Shown: piece by piece, positions 17,643-62,006 of the stretch | Position numbering within the stretch: position 1 is the first letter of the stretch | Layout of the letters: the number at the start of each line of letters is the position of its first letter | DNA from: Escherichia virus TH55 | Reading direction: 5' to 3' (one strand) | Length of the DNA stretch: 64,000 bases | Sequence record: MT446421.1 | The notes under the pieces: model-generated | What the model was told of the DNA's origin: nothing | What the model saw: only the letters and a program-made list of their open reading frames with translations | Database searches by the model: none | Made by a program: the position numbers and the translations under genes

Positions 17643-17948
17643 TTAGATTTTGTTTTCCTGCACACCATAGTAAAGTTCATCAGACACAATATCCAGGATG
17701 CGGCGAACATATTCATCATGGTATTGGCAGTCAAAATCAAATGCAACAGTAGTTTCCGCTTCACGAGTGAATTTAACTTGCACATTCAGGTGATTAACAA
17801 CGTTAGTTAATTTATCAGTAAAGAACTCTTTTGCTACCGCCTGTTGGACTTGTACTTTGAACTTGGTGTTGCGAATCATATTTTCAGCAGATGCGAAATT
17901 ACCAGTTTTATCAAAGTCAACAAGCGCCAGGTTGATGATGAATTTCAT
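17643..17948 (-). CDS. hypothetical protein
   Basis: 101-aa ORF behind family-2 promoter cassette. Confidence 0.45.
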   Translation of the reverse strand: MKFIINLALVDFDKTGNFASAENMIRNTKFKVQVQQAVAKEFFTDKLTNVVNHLNVQVKFTREAETTVAFDFDCQYHDEYVRRILDIVSDELYYGVQENKI

Positions 17949-18010
17949 TTTATTCTCCAGTGTTTTATTTGGTAACTCAGTATGGAATCATTATGCCTTA
18001 AAGCAGGGGG
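17949..18010 (-). promoter_or_regulatory. early promoter/5' leader cassette (family 2)
   Basis: coding strand CATAAT gattccatactgagttaccaaataaaacactggag ATG. Confidence 0.45.
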
Positions 18011-18034
18011 CTTGTATACCCCCCCCTTTTTGAA

Positions 18035-18478
18035 TTAAATTTCAAATTCTTTGCGGAAGTTGGAAGCATAAGACTGAACTGATGCTTTGTTGAACCCAAA
18101 CTCACGCACAATCATATCAATAACAGCTCTGCGAGCAGCACCATTAGACATATTAACAGTTTTGAACATATCATAGCATAAATCTTTGTTGCTCATACCG
18201 GAGCGTTTAGGTGCCTTACGTTCAGCTTTTGGTTCAGCTTTAGGAGTAGGTTTAACTTCTGGTTTAACCTGTCCATCATTCAGACCTTTAAAAATTTTAC
18301 CTGCCAGAGTTGCCAGTTTAGCAGCTTCGCCACGAGTGATACCAAATACTGCCGGGTTAAATGAAATACCTTCAGCTGTCAGACGTTTGAAGAACATACG
18401 GGCTGCGGATTGTGCTTCAGCTTCAGAAGAGTTGTTTAATGCCAGTTTAACGTACTTAACCAGTTTTGAAGTTTTCAT
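18035..18478 (-). CDS. hypothetical protein (paralog of 18562..18987)
   Basis: 147 aa from MKTSKL; C-terminal NGAARRAVIDMIV...VQSYASNFRK shared with neighbour. Confidence 0.45.
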   Translation of the reverse strand: MKTSKLVKYVKLALNNSSEAEAQSAARMFFKRLTAEGISFNPAVFGITRGEAAKLATLAGKIFKGLNDGQVKPEVKPTPKAEPKAERKAPKRSGMSNKDLCYDMFKTVNMSNGAARRAVIDMIVREFGFNKASVQSYASNFRKEFEI

Positions 18479-18540
18479 TTTATTATCCCGTTTGTTTATT
18501 TGGTAACTCAGTATGGGATAATTATACATTATCCCACCTG
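18479..18540 (-). promoter_or_regulatory. early promoter/hairpin cassette (family 2)
   Basis: coding strand GTTTTAC...gggata atg TATAAT tatccc atactgagttaccaaataaa...ATG. Confidence 0.5.
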
Positions 18541-18561
18541 GAAGTAAAACACTTTTCTCAA

Positions 18562-18987
18562 TTATTTTTGAGCTTTGCGGAAGTTGGAAGCATATGACTG
18601 AACAACAGTCTTTTTGATATCATGGGTGTTAACCAGAACATCAATCAGAGCGCGACGAGCTGCACCATCTGCCATATCAATTTCTGCAAATGCCTGGAAG
18701 CAAATGTCACGAGCATTACCAGATTTTGACTGGATTTTTTCTTCTTTAACTTCTTCAATTGGGAATTCAATCATTTCAGCTTGGATTAATTCAATGATAG
18801 ATTCTTTTGACTGTTTGGTGTTTACCTTCAGTTCAGAATTAAGGGACTTGGCGATGGCAACAATCTGGGTTGAAGTCAGATGAATAAGTGCATCTTCACG
18901 AATGCAGATTTCACATACTTCATCGGCAACCATTTTGTTGGTGATGCGGGTAACAGAGAATGCAGAGGTCAGGGTCAGGAAGTTCAT
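18562..18987 (-). CDS. hypothetical protein (paralog of 18035..18478)
   Basis: 141 aa from MNFLTL; C-terminal DGAARRALIDVLV...VQSYASNFRK. Confidence 0.45.
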   Translation of the reverse strand: MNFLTLTSAFSVTRITNKMVADEVCEICIREDALIHLTSTQIVAIAKSLNSELKVNTKQSKESIIELIQAEMIEFPIEEVKEEKIQSKSGNARDICFQAFAEIDMADGAARRALIDVLVNTHDIKKTVVQSYASNFRKAQK

Positions 18988-19060
18988 TTTATTTCTCCAA
19001 AGTTTTGTTTGATTCAGTGTGTAACTCAGTATGGAATCATTATGCATCCAGTCAATTCGG
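18988..19060 (-). promoter_or_regulatory. early promoter/leader cassette (family 2)
   Basis: coding strand GTGTAC...CATAAT gattccatactgagttacacactg...ggag ATG. Confidence 0.45.
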
Positions 19061-19108
19061 ATGTACACTACTTTTTGAAGAAAATTTCAAATTTATTCGG
19101 GGTATAAA

Positions 19109-19127
19109 AAAGCCCGCAATGCGGGCT
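19109..19127 (-). terminator. rho-independent terminator
   Basis: agcccgc aat gcgggct hairpin next to A-run (T-run on minus strand), right after stop of 19129..19683. Confidence 0.5.
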
Positions 19128-19128
19128 G

Positions 19129-19683
19129 TTAGTTCTTATAAAAGCGGAACGGATTTATATGAAAGGCGAGCATAGCCTTAGGGATTGGTCGGGACAGAAG
19201 GCTCTTGAGCTTCCAACCACAATAAACGCGCAGATAAAAGGTGATTCCACCGACCTTGAGATAAGGAACAGAAGCAAAAACACCCCAGGCATTATCCGTC
19301 CACATCCAGAGCCATCCGTGATGAGCTTTATCCGGGGAACCGGATTCAACATCAGGATTGCCTTTATAATGGAATTCTGAATTGCAATCACGACCGAGCT
19401 TGTGGTAAGCAAAATTGTATGCTTTGTTTCGCCAGAGCCAAGCTACTCGTTGGAAGTAAACACCTAACGGCCATTTTCGGATTTTTGACCAACGTTTGAC
19501 ATGACCCCGGTCACCATCAATCGGATTATCATAAGTCATCATCCAATCAAACCCGAACGGAAGTTTACCAGTCTTTTTATTATAGAATGGAACTACAAAT
19601 GGAGCCAGGATAACGGCCAGAATCATGGAGATAAAATCCAGTGGAACTAACAGAATCCAACTCAAATATTTTAACAGTTTCAT
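19129..19683 (-). CDS. hypothetical membrane-anchored protein
   Basis: 184 aa from MKLLKYLSW with N-terminal hydrophobic helix; longer ORF start runs through upstream terminator. Confidence 0.45.
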   Translation of the reverse strand: MKLLKYLSWILLVPLDFISMILAVILAPFVVPFYNKKTGKLPFGFDWMMTYDNPIDGDRGHVKRWSKIRKWPLGVYFQRVAWLWRNKAYNFAYHKLGRDCNSEFHYKGNPDVESGSPDKAHHGWLWMWTDNAWGVFASVPYLKVGGITFYLRVYCGWKLKSLLSRPIPKAMLAFHINPFRFYKN

Positions 19684-19706
19684 ACGTTTCTCTTTAGTTG
19701 ATTTAT

Positions 19707-19735
19707 AAAAAAGCCCCAACCTTTCGGAAGGGGCT
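19707..19735 (-). terminator. rho-independent terminator
   Basis: agcccc...ggggct stem with tcgg-type loop and adjacent A-run on plus strand. Confidence 0.5.
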
Positions 19736-19772
19736 ATACCTTGTCGGGGTTCCACCTGCAAGGCAAGTGTTC

Positions 19773-20168
19773 TTATCCGCGAGCGAATGCCATTGCAGCG
19801 CGTTCGTTAGCACGGTCGGTGATGTTCAAGAATTTATCACGAGCGATTTCGATTGGAGCACCAACCCAGTCAGCAGCACCATTACCTGGAGACTGTTTAG
19901 GGCGAACCATATAAGTTGAAACTTTGGAACCGGCTAGTTTGGCACCAGGTGCCGCGGCATTTTTAACGTCTTTAGCTTTGATGCCAAACCCAGTTACGAT
20001 ACCCCAAGAAACGCCATTAACTGGTTTCTTGAACATAACACGGTCACCAATTGAAACACCGGCTTTTTCTGGAGCCACTAAAGAAAATTTACCAGCTTCA
20101 GTCAGTACGGATTCGGTGATGGTATTGCGATTTAAAAATTCTGCATATGTAAGCATTTTGTTTTCCAT
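19773..20168 (-). CDS. hypothetical protein, possible internal-protein-like leader
   Basis: 131 aa; N-terminus MLTYAEFLNRNTITE loosely resembles the MKTYQEFIAE leader. Confidence 0.4.
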   Translation of the reverse strand: MENKMLTYAEFLNRNTITESVLTEAGKFSLVAPEKAGVSIGDRVMFKKPVNGVSWGIVTGFGIKAKDVKNAAAPGAKLAGSKVSTYMVRPKQSPGNGAADWVGAPIEIARDKFLNITDRANERAAMAFARG

Positions 20169-20205
20169 TATTAGGGTTGTTGTTAATATTTATATTCCAT
20201 AGTAC

Positions 20206-20254
20206 CGGATGCACCATCCGCTCGGATTTCTCATACTACCGGACGCACCGTCCG
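20206..20254 (-). ncRNA. two tandem covarying hairpins (candidate small stable RNA or processing signal)
   Basis: cggatg-cac-catccg and cggacg-cac-cgtccg with compensatory changes, in a 225-bp noncoding stretch beside the tRNAs. Confidence 0.3.
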
Positions 20255-20392
20255 CTCTGGAAAAACTCCGTAAAAGGGTGCGCCGTTTCAGCTGTGATAT
20301 AAGGGGGCATCAACAAATCGTAAAGATTTATTAATGCCAGTCCTTAAACAGGGAACTTCAGTCCGACGACTTACCGGTAGCGACCCGGTTTC

Positions 20393-20632
20393 TCATTCAA
20401 TTGTAATAGCTAATTTGACTTTAACAACCTTATAATTGGAATCAAGGTCATTGAATTCCATAAAATTTGTTGCTAATCTGCGAGTCGGGAAACTTAGATA
20501 TTTATTATGCTCAGGTGGAGCGGTTAATGCAAACCATGGGACTTGTTTATCATTTTCATCAAACTCATCAAAGCTATAAACCAACTCGTTGTTGGTTATA
20601 TCCATAACTGCATATGATTCACTAATAACCAT
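20393..20632 (-). CDS. hypothetical protein
   Basis: 79 aa from MVISESY with GAGGA SD; longer ORF start overlaps tRNA-Arg. Confidence 0.35.
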   Translation of the reverse strand: MVISESYAVMDITNNELVYSFDEFDENDKQVPWFALTAPPEHNKYLSFPTRRLATNFMEFNDLDSNYKVVKVKLAITIE

Positions 20633-20648
20633 AATATCCTCGGTAATT

Positions 20649-20724
20649 GGTCGGGGTGGTGGGATTCTAACCCACAACCTACGGTTTAGAAGACCGTTGC
20701 TCTATACAATTGAGCTACACCCCG
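20649..20724 (-). tRNA. tRNA-Arg (anticodon TCT)
   Basis: hand-folded cloverleaf: acceptor CGGGGTG/CACCCCG, D-arm GCTC/GAGC, anticodon arm ACGGT-CTTCTAA-ACCGT, T-arm GTGGG-TTAGAAT-CCCAC, encoded CCA. Confidence 0.8.
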
Positions 20725-20800
20725 GGTGGCCCCATCCGGACTTGAACCGGAAACCTGCCAGTTATGAGCCGGATGCTCTAACCAATTGAGCTACAGGGCC
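20725..20800 (-). tRNA. tRNA-Met/Ile2 (anticodon CAT)
   Basis: acceptor GGCCCTG, D-arm GCTC-AATTGGTTA-GAGC, loop CTCATAA, T-arm TCCGG-TTCAAGT-CCGGA; anticodon stem has one mismatch; abuts tRNA-Arg. Confidence 0.7.
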
Positions 20801-22302: not shown

Positions 22303-22557
22303 TTATTTTTTAGGGATACGATAGTAACGCATCTCAACATCTTTCTGCTTGTGCCACTTTTTGATAAGGTCTTCAGAACCTTTAATAGTAACGATGTCAT
22401 AGCGACCATCATGCGATACTTCAGCACTTAACTGCATGAAGTTGTCTAGTGAACGGCGCAATTCCTCATTAGAAAAACTACCACGCGGGGAACCAACATA
22501 AGCAAACTCAACTTTTGCATCTGCGGCTTCGTTAATAAATTCTTGATAAGTTTTCAT
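22303..22557 (-). CDS. internal-protein-like protein with capsid targeting sequence
   Basis: starts MKTYQEFINE; 84 aa. Confidence 0.55.
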   Translation of the reverse strand: MKTYQEFINEAADAKVEFAYVGSPRGSFSNEELRRSLDNFMQLSAEVSHDGRYDIVTIKGSEDLIKKWHKQKDVEMRYYRIPKK

Positions 22558-22612
22558 GTTGTCTCCAGTAGTTGATGAGATAATTATACTGCAGTTATCC
22601 CATCGCGTATAC
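22558..22612 (-). promoter_or_regulatory. early promoter/hairpin cassette (family 1)
   Basis: coding strand ...cagTATAATtatctcatcaactactggagacaac ATG. Confidence 0.45.
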
Positions 22613-22613
22613 T

Positions 22614-22856
22614 TTATTTTAAGTCTTCCAGACGTTTTTTCATCTTGGTGCCATTCTTAGCAATCTCGCCGGCATCAGAACAAAGAGCAAGGAGAGCTTT
22701 AACTTTACCCTGGTCGCCTTTAAAAGATGATGCATCTACTGAATCAGCAAGTTCTTTGATACGTGCAAACAGGCGCTCTGCTTCAGCAAGGGCTTGACCA
22801 AGTTTAACTTCCATACCATGGGAAGATTCTGTTATAAATGTTTGATAAGTTTTCAT
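22614..22856 (-). CDS. internal-protein-like protein with capsid targeting sequence
   Basis: starts MKTYQTFITE; 80 aa. Confidence 0.55.
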   Translation of the reverse strand: MKTYQTFITESSHGMEVKLGQALAEAERLFARIKELADSVDASSFKGDQGKVKALLALCSDAGEIAKNGTKMKKRLEDLK

Positions 22857-22864
22857 TTGAAATC

Positions 22865-23137
22865 CTATTTTAGATAAATTGCATATTTTTTATAACCAGC
22901 CGTCTCATGGCGAAGACCCTTGTCATTGGCAAAACGCTCAATGTTATTAATTTGGTTCTGGTCAAGTTCTGAAATGTCAAACGCAAAAAAGTTGCGTTTG
23001 TTACCAATTGTTATATGGTCAGTTAAGTCAATGCTATACAGGTGATTGATATTGTCAATCATAGCTTTGACTGCTTTACTAATTTTTACTTCTTCATTCA
23101 GTTGTGACTCGTTGAAAAATTCATTGAAAGTTTTCAT
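22865..23137 (-). CDS. internal-protein-like protein with capsid targeting sequence
   Basis: starts MKTFNEFFNE; 90 aa. Confidence 0.5.
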   Translation of the reverse strand: MKTFNEFFNESQLNEEVKISKAVKAMIDNINHLYSIDLTDHITIGNKRNFFAFDISELDQNQINNIERFANDKGLRHETAGYKKYAIYLK

Positions 23138-36526: not shown

Positions 36527-37523
36527 TTCATCTGTAGTTTATCGTTCGATAATTACCTCGAAATTTCGAACTGAAAAAATGTATAACTTTTATAAAATGA
36601 TTGGTAACGAGCCTGACCAGAATACGATGTATGTAACATTCGGTCGGGCTGAACCCTGGGCTTCGAATGAGAATGACCCGGGGTTCGCCCCTCCTTATCC
36701 GGTTGATACAGCACAAGGTGTTGAAGATACTTGGACCAATATGATGGGGGCAGTCAAAGTTTATAAGTCAATGCTTGATTGTGTTGTCCCACGTAAAGAC
36801 TGGGGCGATATCAGATATCCTAATCCGCTTAACTTCCAGGTAGGGGAAATTGTTGTAGCTAACAGTGCTCCATATAACCGAACTGATGTTGGTAAAGGTT
36901 GGATGGTTTATCGTTGCGTGGATGTTCCTGATGTTGGGACTTGCTCCATTTATTCCATTATCAATAAAGAAGAGTGCTTAAAACTCGGTGGTAAATGGAC
37001 GGCAGAATATAACTCGACGAGAGCTCCAGCAGGGACTGGCGACACTGAAGGACGAGTTGATATGGGCGATGGTTATCTCTGGGAATATTTGTATGAGATT
37101 CCGCCTGATGTATCCATCAACCGTTGTACTAACGAATATATTGTTGTTCCATGGCCTGAAGAAATCGAAGAAGACCCGTCACGCTGGGGTTACAAAGATA
37201 ATATCAGCTGGCAACAAGATGATTTCGGTTTAATATATAGAATCAAAGGATATACAATCAGATTTAAAGCATTTATGGATTCCATTTACTTCCCGGAATT
37301 CAGTCTCCCGGGAAACAAAGGCTTCCGACAGCTGTCGATTATATCCAACCCACTTGAAGTTAAAGTACATCCTAATGACCCAAATATCAAAGCAATCAAA
37401 GAATACTACGATGCAATTGATTTGGACCGTCATTCTGGGGAAATGATTTATATGGAAAACCGCCCACCAATTATTCGTGCAATGGACCAGACAGAAGAAG
37501 TTAACATTATTTTTGAATTCTAA
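36519..37523 (+). CDS. 8: baseplate wedge protein gp8
   Basis: 334 aa, same size as T4 gp8. Confidence 0.85.
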   Translation: MNNSSVVYRSIITSKFRTEKMYNFYKMIGNEPDQNTMYVTFGRAEPWASNENDPGFAPPYPVDTAQGVEDTWTNMMGAVKVYKSMLDCVVPRKDWGDIRYPNPLNFQVGEIVVANSAPYNRTDVGKGWMVYRCVDVPDVGTCSIYSIINKEECLKLGGKWTAEYNSTRAPAGTGDTEGRVDMGDGYLWEYLYEIPPDVSINRCTNEYIVVPWPEEIEEDPSRWGYKDNISWQQDDFGLIYRIKGYTIRFKAFMDSIYFPEFSLPGNKGFRQLSIISNPLEVKVHPNDPNIKAIKEYYDAIDLDRHSGEMIYMENRPPIIRAMDQTEEVNIIFEF

Positions 37524-37526
37524 CTA

Positions 37527-37549
37527 GGGACCTTCGGGTCCCTTTTTTA
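37527..37549 (+). terminator. rho-independent terminator after gene 8
   Basis: gggacc ttcg ggtccc followed by T7. Confidence 0.7.
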
Positions 37550-57207: not shown

Positions 57208-57230
57208 TCCTAGATTAAGTTAAATAAAAA

Positions 57231-57258
57231 GGGACCCTTGAGGTCCCTTTCTTGTTTT
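57231..57258 (+). terminator. bidirectional rho-independent terminator after gene 23
   Basis: gggacc cttga ggtccc with flanking A5 and T-rich runs. Confidence 0.65.
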
Positions 57259-58932: not shown

Positions 58933-60216
58933 ATGCAAAAGATTAATGCACTAATTCACGAATCAACATTAACGGCGGCCAACCAGGTCGCCCGTCCTAA
59001 TTTGCTTTCTTATACTCAAGCCACGAATAAACGAATTTTTAAAGCGCTCGTGGCCGAACAGAAAACTACCCAGCCTGTTGCAGCGCTGTATGGTGTTCGT
59101 GTTCTGAACCCAGATGATAAAATGACTTATCTCGGTGGAGCAACATTTGCAGGTCAGATTGGTATGTTCGAGCGTAAGAATATTCCAGAATTTACAAACA
59201 AAGACGAAGCTTATGCAGTCGGCGATATGTTCCAGTTTGAAAGTGTTGTGTTCAAAGTTTTGGAAGCATCCCCATTCGCCGGTACACTCGAAACTGATTT
59301 AGGTGAAGTTATTTCTGAAGCCATTGCTGCTGGGCATATAAGAATGATGTCAGATGCTGCTTTCACTGATAAATTTGAAAAGGGGCATCCTGAAATTGCT
59401 GAAGCTGGTTTTCGTATCGATAAATGGCAGACTGAAGTTAAATCCAGAAAGTTGAAAACTTCTTTAACTGTCGAGCTTGCCCAGGACCTGGAAGCAAACG
59501 GTTTTGATGCAACAGACTTCATCGATAATATTCTCGGCATTCAAATGGCAGAGGAAATTAATAAGGATGTATTGCAATCCCTTATTACTGTTAGTTCCCG
59601 CTTCAAGGTGCAAGGTGTTTCGGAAAAAGGTGTATTGAATCTTACTGACCCGAAATATGATAACGCGCAGGACCGCGCGCGAACCCTGTATTATTATATG
59701 TGTGAAATGAATTCTGCAGTTCAACGTCAGACTTCGTTTGCTGGTACATATGCGGTTGCTTCTTCCCGTTGTGCAGCTATTTTAGCCGCTTCTGGCTGGG
59801 TTGAGAAAAAGGAAGACCAGGATGAATTGGCCTATGGTGTTCTGAAGAACGGTTTGCCTCTTTACGCTGATATGAATAGTCCATGTGATTATGTTATTGT
59901 TGGTGTAAATGCAGATATGGGTGAAGGTCAGACGGTCGCATCTTTGTATTATGCGCCTTATACGGAAGGGCTTAGCGAAGTTGATGATGAGGGTGATACC
60001 TCGGTTGGGGAATTCAAGGTTATTGTTGACCCTGAAAGCTTACAGCCTACGGTTGCACTGTTAGCTCGTTATGCTTTGACTGCGAACCCTTACACCGTTG
60101 CTAAAGATGATAAAGAAGCTCGCCTTATTGATGGAGCTGATATGGATAAGATGGCTAACCAAAGTCAATTGAGTTCTTATCTTGGTGTTAAACTTCCACC
60201 GCTGGAAAAAGAATAA
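58933..60216 (+). CDS. 24: head vertex protein gp24 paralog (copy 2)
   Basis: 427 aa; colinear similarity to copy 1 (MQKINALIHESTLTAANQVARPNL vs MAKINKLLRESTITTSNSLGRPNL; both end PYTVAKDDKEAR.ID). Confidence 0.8.
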   Translation: MQKINALIHESTLTAANQVARPNLLSYTQATNKRIFKALVAEQKTTQPVAALYGVRVLNPDDKMTYLGGATFAGQIGMFERKNIPEFTNKDEAYAVGDMFQFESVVFKVLEASPFAGTLETDLGEVISEAIAAGHIRMMSDAAFTDKFEKGHPEIAEAGFRIDKWQTEVKSRKLKTSLTVELAQDLEANGFDATDFIDNILGIQMAEEINKDVLQSLITVSSRFKVQGVSEKGVLNLTDPKYDNAQDRARTLYYYMCEMNSAVQRQTSFAGTYAVASSRCAAILAASGWVEKKEDQDELAYGVLKNGLPLYADMNSPCDYVIVGVNADMGEGQTVASLYYAPYTEGLSEVDDEGDTSVGEFKVIVDPESLQPTVALLARYALTANPYTVAKDDKEARLIDGADMDKMANQSQLSSYLGVKLPPLEKE

Positions 60217-60237
60217 GGGCCTTGCGGCCCTTTTTTT
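60217..60237 (+). terminator. rho-independent terminator after gene 24 copy 2
   Basis: gggcc ttgc ggccc plus T7. Confidence 0.7.
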
Positions 60238-61975: not shown

Positions 61976-62004
61976 AAAATAAAGGGACCCGAAGGTCCCT
62001 TTTT
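61976..62004 (-). terminator. bidirectional rho-independent terminator after hoc
   Basis: gggacc cgaa ggtccc flanked by A- and T-runs. Confidence 0.6.
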
Positions 62005-62006
62005 AA

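Follow-up and report, generated by a model that had tools for sequence, protein, structure and literature searches.

A gene of the DUF7338 family in Escherichia virus TH55 can be read, with a probability that we put at about 0.72, as the cargo of a terminator-insulated late-gene cassette that sits in a hyperplastic region of this T4-like phage and is moved by recombination between terminator hairpins. The DNA analysed here (hereafter the window) is a 64,000-nucleotide stretch of sequence record MT446421.1. The source region is 100% identical to Escherichia phage UPEC07, a virulent T4-like phage of the genus Gaprivervirus (Straboviridae, Tevenvirinae). The locus lies in the stretch that goes from the tRNA genes to the e.x region, with internal-protein and tRNA genes on one side and e.6-like genes on the other, all of them on the minus strand. 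Its content differs among UPEC07, RZ, VR7 and SP18, which places it where the promoter-early stem-loop (PeSL) cassettes of T4-like phages are found. Read from 5′ to 3′ on the minus strand, the proposed layout would comprise the resident double-hairpin terminator that ends the tRNA/rnaC unit, a late promoter joined directly to the T-run of that terminator, a short leader that contains a ribosome-binding site (RBS), the DUF7338 gene and a second terminator:

19737–19765, minus strand: first hairpin of the resident double terminator, found by folding, directly after the stop codon of the open reading frame (ORF) 19773–20168 and homologous to the sequence 3′ of rnaC in T4 and Kha5h.
19707–19735, minus strand: upstream terminator, made of AGCCCCTTCCGAAAGGTTGGGGCT (19712–19735) and T6 (19707–19712), ΔG −16.0 kcal/mol, z −2.9; proposed left recombination site.
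19700–19707, minus strand: TATAAATC, a probable variant T4-type late promoter with a 7/8 match to TATAAATA; it overlaps the end of the T-run, and relatives have the canonical box.
19689–19695, minus strand: Shine-Dalgarno-like AAAGAGA, 5 nt upstream of the ATG, as read from the sequence.
19129–19683, minus strand: DUF7338 gene, 184 aa, with an N-terminal hydrophobic helix and a basic Trp/Tyr-rich alpha/beta domain according to family matches, an AlphaFold2 model and sequence properties.
19106–19127, minus strand: downstream terminator, made of AGCCCGCATTGCGGGCT (19111–19127) and T6 (19106–19111), ΔG −12.6 kcal/mol, z −3.5; proposed right recombination site.

Gain or loss of the unit is visible in phages of the same genus. 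SP18 and VR7 lack exactly the 601 bp that separate two copies of the 13-mer GGGCTTTTTTATA. Both keep the rnaC-type hairpin, which is followed by the sequence that stands downstream of the second terminator in the window, and the switch from one to the other falls inside the 13-mer; the downstream hairpin is missing from these empty sites. In 64 kb this 13-mer is present exactly twice, at 19103–19115 and 19704–19716 (minus strand), once in each terminator tail, where 0.00 occurrences would be expected, and the position of the copies makes 601 bp both the period of the repeat and the unit of the indel. The cassette was found at this locus in about 19 records, the empty site in roughly a dozen related ones, a count extrapolated from an evenly spaced sample of the hit list. 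Genomes without cassette have the gene 18562–18987 directly abutting the rnaC-type terminator. Phages can dispense with the DUF7338 gene: some close relatives have it and others do not, and the junctions are exact.

The initial annotation had placed the gene 19129–19683 between two strong minus-strand hairpin terminators, and the folds bear this out, with z-scores (taken against shuffled sequences) of about −3 for both. In each hairpin 6–7 GC-rich pairs close the stem and T6 follows, as in the sequence of intrinsic terminators. Scanning the whole window on both strands returned roughly ten canonical terminators of this kind (GC-hairpin and T-run), and the DUF7338 gene is the only one in the window with such a terminator on either side and on the same strand as itself. 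The notion of a cassette bracketed by terminators is right for one of its ends: the downstream hairpin is the 3′ terminator of the cassette itself, and at the same time provides the PeSL-like element of the next gene with its stem-loop. The upstream one is, by contrast, a resident, widely conserved rnaC-type terminator of T-even phages, outside any imported unit. In Kha5h and T4 its sequence comes right after the 3′ end of rnaC (species 1 RNA), where the tRNA operon ends, and some records annotate it as 'terminator'. The segment 19707–19771 is about 80% identical to the sequence 3′ of rnaC in these two phages, with the same double hairpin and T-run, and homology between T4 and the window stops right after the T-run. 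When the cassette was used in a distant DNA search, roughly 800 further T-even genomes matched over 19693–19759 only. The window departs from the T4 rnaC terminator region in having a 131-aa ORF with its own TATAAATA in place of rnaC, and in an inner stem where TT replaces GA, which creates a 2x2 internal mismatch. Autonomy had been ascribed to the two terminators alone; any autonomy would come from the late promoter fused to the upstream T-run, and the late-promoter-like TATAAATC at 19700–19707 had been overlooked together with the hairpin 19737–19765.

The TATAAATC box abuts the hairpin, and at the same position the canonical TATAAATA is found in VR20 (Gaprivervirus), MX01 (Dhakavirus) and both PTK and LF82-35 (Mosigvirus), which together make it probable that the DUF7338 gene has a T4-type late promoter of its own. 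In PG7 (Karamvirus) the box position is occupied by CATAAATA. Tequatrovirus genomes carry the canonical TATAAATA behind the T-run of the same hairpin, before other cargoes. The spacer between T-run and box varies from 0 to 4 nt among relatives while the box is kept, which argues for selection on the box. With 20 occurrences in the window against 5.1 expected, TATAAATA is four-fold enriched, and at 37.5 kb and 44.1 kb a hairpin with T-run is again followed by TATAAATA and, about 25 nt further on, by an ATG. A single deviation is known in such boxes: according to a review of late transcription in T4, 32 of 50 T4 late promoters are perfect and the rest have mostly single deviations, some of which are used (PMC2988020). 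Only 23 nt lie between the hairpin stem and the ATG; the promoter scan found no −35/−10 pair of a sigma-70 promoter in this interval, which offers no room for one. The gene would thus be transcribed late, possibly weakly in this phage.

Similar arrangements exist in other genera, and at another locus. Mosigvirus genomes have a DUF7338 gene (about 76% amino acid identity) just after rI, between two copies of the upstream hairpin of the window, both identical to it. F2, another Mosigvirus, and the majority of the other relatives lack the gene and have a single hairpin, and comparison of F2 with LF82-35 puts the crossover inside the stem. A search of the Mosigvirus rI locus gave the cassette in 23 records, and most of the rest, of 192 matching, are without it. 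In the Dhakavirus MX01 the gene sits at the rnaC site between two hairpin copies, the second of which is followed by the early promoter of e.8. Kha5h, a Tequatrovirus, has the same hairpin and TATAAATA too, and what lies between them and a second copy of the hairpin is an unrelated and unannotated ORF of 157 aa (phrog_2280). T4 represents the empty site here, because its sequence after the single hairpin matches that of Kha5h after the second copy. A scan of viral contigs added a third cargo of 126 aa, behind the same hairpin and promoter on a metagenomic contig, and at least three unrelated cargoes have been seen so far. Junctions of indels or replacements were located inside repeated elements in SP18 and VR7, in F2 compared with LF82-35, and in Kha5h compared with T4, just as junctions of PeSL cassettes are. 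The 157-aa ORF of Kha5h (NC_054905, 990–1463 of the compared stretch, minus strand) starts with MKSYAQFLNEA, which resembles the starts of internal-protein genes; in the GenBank record its place is a gap of about 750 nt without gene.

These comparisons fit one mechanism, in which a resident hairpin is the place where a segment enters or leaves the genome. We infer homologous recombination between terminator hairpins or their tails from junctions that are seen directly in the comparisons. A segment made of late promoter, gene and hairpin, integrating at a resident hairpin, would yield the order hairpin, gene, hairpin, and recombination between the two hairpin copies would produce a precise deletion; the same logic has been demonstrated by experiment for PeSL cassettes and their mini-circles. 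As for expression, the upstream terminator would put an end to early and middle transcription entering from the tRNA region, the late RNA polymerase dependent on gp55, gp33 and gp45 would start a few bases after the TATAAAT box, and the downstream terminator would bar late transcripts from the next gene, which has its own early promoter. A broader version of this scenario is possible, and we hold it tentatively: the rnaC-type hairpin with its late promoter would be a general landing pad of Tevenvirinae, where interchangeable late cargoes are captured, duplicated and moved between the rnaC and rI sites by recombination of one hairpin with another, a late counterpart of PeSL ("PlSL"), with the DUF7338 product a membrane-anchored enzyme of new fold acting on the envelope late in infection.

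PeSL cassettes are known from the hyperplastic regions of T4-like phages, where mini-circles have been shown (Arbiol et al., 2010, PMC2839356; Comeau et al., 2014, PMC4122927). The DUF7338 cassette is like them in its hyperplastic location and in a stem-loop terminator joined to promoter, RBS and start codon. Repeated copies also flank small non-essential ORFs, junctions of insertions, deletions and replacements lie within the repeats, and the units are transcriptionally insulated. It differs in its promoter, which would be of the T4 late type (TATAAAT box) and not sigma-70-like early, the cassette's own upstream element having no early promoter. The late promoter goes beyond the published cases, the 2010 paper making no mention of late promoters (PMC2839356) and that of 2014 adding only middle-promoter versions, PmSL (PMC4122927). 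The distance from hairpin to ATG is only 22–35 nt, and the recombining repeat is the terminator hairpin with its T-run tail, instead of the AT-rich and −35/−10 region.

The moron, after the concept of Hendrix and Juhala, is the other natural term of comparison, and comes from temperate phages. It was a moron-like autonomy that the initial annotation had proposed. Much of this holds: there is an extra single gene, insulated and dispensable, between genes that are adjacent in relatives, with a 3′ terminator of its own and, very probably, a promoter as well. The strict prophage sense of the term is inapplicable because the phage is virulent, with no prophage expression to consider. The cassette promoter would moreover be phage-specific and late, not constitutive sigma-70, and gain or loss would go through repeated regulatory hairpins. 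Nor is the composition foreign. The annotation had suggested a survey of presence and absence in relatives and a comparison of GC content and codon usage; the survey gave a non-uniform picture, with exact junctions in Gaprivervirus and another locus in Mosigvirus, while the second comparison returned no difference. The gene has a GC content of 42.9%, where 93 putative genes average 39.9% (z +0.84), with z +1.6 for GC3 and −0.68 for codon usage; being within the normal range of the window, these values are uninformative as markers of foreign origin. Among known systems, regulatory cassettes of PeSL type in the hyperplastic regions of T4-like phages come closer (PMC2839356, PMC4122927).

The protein itself is a typical member of its family. 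It matches Pfam DUF7338 (PF24027) over residues 1–183 of 184 with E 9.8e-63 (211.5 bits for a cut-off of 27), and phrog_2143 ('unknown function') over its full length with E 1e-79. Homologues begin at the same MKLLKY, for which reason the start codon is taken as the ATG at 19683 and not as the listed TTG at 19761. The N-terminal anchor and Trp/Tyr-rich body that had been noted before can be recognized in its predicted features: residues 7–33 are hydrophobic, with a grand average of hydropathy (GRAVY) of 2.25, and the other 151 residues have a pI of 9.9, with 10–11 Trp and 10–11 Tyr. The AlphaFold2 model has a predicted local distance difference test (pLDDT) score of 95.1 and a helix at residues 2–33. 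Across 84 diverse representatives W82, R85, N86 and G156 are invariant, and P42, T50, D52, G57, G123, W157, K158 and P178 nearly so; the conserved residues of the family sit in the motifs TxDNxxDGD, WLWRN and GWK. The polar ones among them look like a binding or catalytic site, which would be near the membrane surface. Charges flanking the helix favour an N-in/C-out orientation in 52 of the 84 members and the opposite in 15, so that this is probably the topology of the product, with low confidence. We infer, with low confidence too, that the cargo is a dispensable, late-made, membrane-anchored protein. An accessory function on the cell envelope late in infection is our best guess, again a low-confidence one, and the idea of an envelope enzyme has roughly one chance in four.

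No function has been described for DUF7338, and we found no paper that mentions it. Searches with the protein gave no match in NCBIfam or PADLOC, and a profile search of the sequences of the Protein Data Bank (PDB) produced no hit with E under 0.1. Scans of 35 family members against Pfam at permissive settings returned DUF7338 only, with no holin model even at E up to 10. Foldseek found no match in the PDB with E below 1.7, and its scattered matches to hot-dog folds, with TM-scores of 0.1–0.15, were taken as noise. A structure search of BFVD retrieved family members only, one of them labelled "Envelope protein".

The family itself is widespread. By tblastn it was found in 569 phage records, which cover several genera of Straboviridae, Felixounavirus, YerA41 and some phages of Aeromonas, Vibrio, Serratia and Pseudomonas. 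An exhaustive profile search yielded 922 clusters at 50% identity, almost all of them stand-alone proteins of 160–215 aa with an N-terminal helix. DUF7338 is essentially a phage family, since a scan of bacterial genomes (with a narrower alignment) gave only 6 loci in 185,579 species genomes. That the family might be mainly a prophage conversion gene was considered and dropped, with only these 6 bacterial loci, one of which is apparently a whole phage contig. This is Flagellimonas marina NZ_JBHSCL010000010.1 (178,077 bp), of the size of a T4-like phage, with a DUF7338 gene 61% identical to that of the window; it is probably a phage contig in the assembly and not bacterial chromosome. Two prophages were examined, and in both the gene is at the end of late operons: in Chitinivorax after a tail-fibre chaperone, at the prophage end, and in Ruegeria after an endolysin and a lipoprotein ORF. 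In metagenomic and other contexts it is often alone, or opposite in orientation to its neighbours, and no neighbour is informative.

Several observations weigh against a mobile, terminator-insulated late cassette with a membrane-anchored product. The gene lacks a downstream terminator in the more distant RB43, PG7 and Felixounavirus, where it is inside operons or tRNA arrays, and the form with two terminators is limited to some Tevenvirinae. In the window the two hairpins have only the outer stem and the tail in common, and a crossover has 13 nt of homology at its disposal, far less than Mosigvirus or Dhakavirus offer. In Gaprivervirus, moreover, either insertion or deletion may have come first. 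Activity of promoter and terminators in this phage is predicted, and late expression may be weak here, because the box is off consensus at its last base and the leader short (16 nt to the ATG). As to the product, no homologue has been characterised, the predicted fold matches no solved structure, and evidence for topology in the family is weak, the window protein having a charge of +3 right after the helix. Given the high predicted TM-score (pTM) of 0.84, the hydrophobic helix may pack against the domain instead of spanning the membrane.

How else could one account for the locus? Ordinary operon punctuation would have the hairpins as resident terminators or RNA-stability elements, around a stable and vertically inherited gene. 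The upstream hairpin is indeed resident and widely conserved, composition and codon usage match the genome, and the layout of terminator and late promoter exists elsewhere in the window. Yet SP18 and VR7, in the same genus, are precisely without the gene, the rI locus of Mosigvirus has it with duplicated hairpins where most relatives are empty, and other cargoes occupy the same hairpin pair, all of which makes this reading very improbable. The gene might also have moved by another route, with the hairpins as bystanders, through co-conversion with a homing endonuclease of the seg or mob type or through illegitimate recombination. T4-like hyperplastic regions are rich in homing endonucleases, and in T4 segB lies within the tRNA cluster. 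A homing endonuclease stands among the tRNA genes in the T4 record OZ209023 and another lies at a distance of about 6 kb in UPEC07, and the repeat in the window is only 13 nt long. No endonuclease gene is present in or next to the cassette, however, and co-conversion would yield a graded replacement of the flanks, not a duplicated hairpin. For three loci or genera the junctions lie in the hairpin or in its T-run tail, with a duplication of the hairpin exactly as homologous integration predicts. This second route is unlikely.

Two further proposals concern the product, and would leave the terminators a lesser part. Were the gene a holin or another core lysis gene, the terminators would set its timing. 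GenBank has the label 'holin' in UPEC07, P8, UPEC01 and a few others, a hydrophobic helix followed by a larger C-terminal domain is loosely like T4 holin T, the promoter is late, and the gene is beside rI in Mosigvirus and near the endolysin in the Ruegeria prophage. The adjacency to rI has its explanation in the matching hairpin at that place. No holin family of Pfam or PHROGs matched, DUF7338 and phrog_2143 being the only hits; the conserved core resembles that of an enzyme, where holins typically have a charged tail; and dispensability, visible here in the absence from many Gaprivervirus and most Mosigvirus genomes, is not to be expected of a core lysis gene. We see very little chance for a lysis role. 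A virion-associated protein, structural or injected, is quite unlikely as well. It would agree with a late promoter, with the position of the gene after tail-fibre genes in prophages, and with the label 'structural protein' of the YerA41 homologue. For that phage an earlier paper of the same group reported 63 particle-associated proteins, identified by mass spectrometry of purified particles (PMC7354516), a list with many non-structural enzymes on which the homologue may stand; the label presumably derives from this particle proteome and was not counted as evidence for a virion role. Furthermore, the protein is without the N-terminal capsid-targeting sequence of the neighbouring internal-protein genes, it is dispensable within genera, and a hydrophobic helix of 27 residues is atypical for a soluble virion component.

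Coming back to the late cassette exchanged at terminator hairpins, the shuffling of regulatory cassettes in T4-like hyperplastic regions is known, and what is new is the late promoter and the terminator itself as exchange point. Specialists will find the mechanism unsurprising; the late-gene landing pad and the uncharacterised protein of new fold merit follow-up. Junctions placed at base level in several genera indicate that modular shuffling in T4-like phages is not confined to early-promoter cassettes. A conserved terminator coupled to a late promoter would, as an exchange point, let phages gain or lose late accessory genes with their neighbours undisturbed, and exchange at the terminator would explain the high variability of the tRNA-to-e region. 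DUF7338, widespread, confidently foldable, without solved match and naturally dispensable, is a tractable subject for the biology of the envelope late in infection. In GenBank the label 'holin' is spreading through this family, and it should be regarded as unsupported.

Beyond the cassette, the downstream side is occupied by two elements:

19039–19067, minus strand: T4-type early promoter of the next gene (TGTACA, 17-nt spacer, CATAAT), after the AT-rich stretch behind the downstream hairpin; outside the cassette.
18562–18987, minus strand: resident downstream gene, 141 aa, phrog_9997, recognized by its PHROG match and by comparison with relatives; outside the cassette.

The promoter fits the consensus TTTACW-N17-TAYWAT of PeSL promoters in PST and T4 (PMC4122927). 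Hairpin, AT-rich stretch, early promoter, Shine-Dalgarno (SD) sequence and ATG of 18562–18987 together form an element of PeSL type, in which a stem-loop is joined to an early promoter. The early-promoter module is also present upstream of the next two genes: the intergenic regions 17931–18080, 18512–18640 and 18970–19130 (minus strand) share about 120 nt in the manner of PeSL repeats, made of an AT-rich stretch, TTTAC/TGTACA, 17 nt, (T/C)ATAAT, SD and ATG. The genes 18035–18529 and 18562–18987 have a common C-terminal domain, phrog_18416 and phrog_9997 cross-hitting.

On the other side, the neighbourhood of the cassette includes tRNA genes:

20648–20800, minus strand: tRNA-Met and tRNA-Arg, near the cassette.

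DUF7338 genes inside or adjoining tRNA arrays were also observed in three unrelated phage groups, at positions given for the compared stretches: PG7 (Karamvirus, 2357–3426), O157 typing phage 1 (Felixounavirus, 2169–3142) and RB43 (Pseudotevenvirus, 1506–3067). A common hyperplastic neighbourhood, or transfer together with blocks of tRNA genes, might explain this adjacency. The annotated 79/94-aa ORF 20393–20677 overlaps tRNA-Arg and is perhaps spurious. A 117-nt stretch (20277–20393), situated between tRNA-Arg and the position of rnaC, is 89–95% conserved in T4, Kha5h, VR7, SP18 and MX01; it may be the counterpart of T4 rnaD (species 2 RNA), and no Rfam family reaches threshold there. Farther away, at 22303–23137 (minus strand), is an array of three small internal-protein genes with the starts MKTYQEFI, MKTYQTFI and MKTFNEFF. 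They match PHROG families of internal head or internal virion proteins, and their N-termini are of the capsid-targeting type.

The 131-aa ORF 19773–20168 (minus strand), for which no PHROG, NCBIfam or PADLOC model matched, has its own perfect TATAAATA at 20187–20194, behind two similar small hairpins, CGGACGGTGCGTCCG and CGGATGGTGCATCCG. Its site (19773–20276) is the position where the closely related RZ, like T4, keeps the tRNA-like 3′ end of rnaC, and it looks like a second swap of a late-promoter cargo, adjoining the DUF7338 cassette. In VR7 an unrelated ORF of 184 aa (ORF148c; 3424–3978 of the compared stretch, minus strand) is found beside the empty site, just upstream of the rnaC-type terminator. 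The neighbouring slot and the same length of 184 aa had made it a candidate for a diverged copy of the DUF7338 gene, which comparison shows to be unrelated; its record notes similarity to BF23 ORF172c, and it constitutes another replacement in the same neighbourhood.

Finally, the window has a second hairpin family, GGGACC-loop-GGTCCC followed by a T-run, which recurs three times. The sites concerned are:

37520–37543, plus strand: hairpin with T-run.
57230–57254, minus strand: hairpin with T-run.
60215–60235, both strands: hairpin with T-runs.
61983–62005, both strands: hairpin with T-runs.

The sites near 60.2 kb and 62.0 kb have T-runs on both strands, and are bidirectional terminators.

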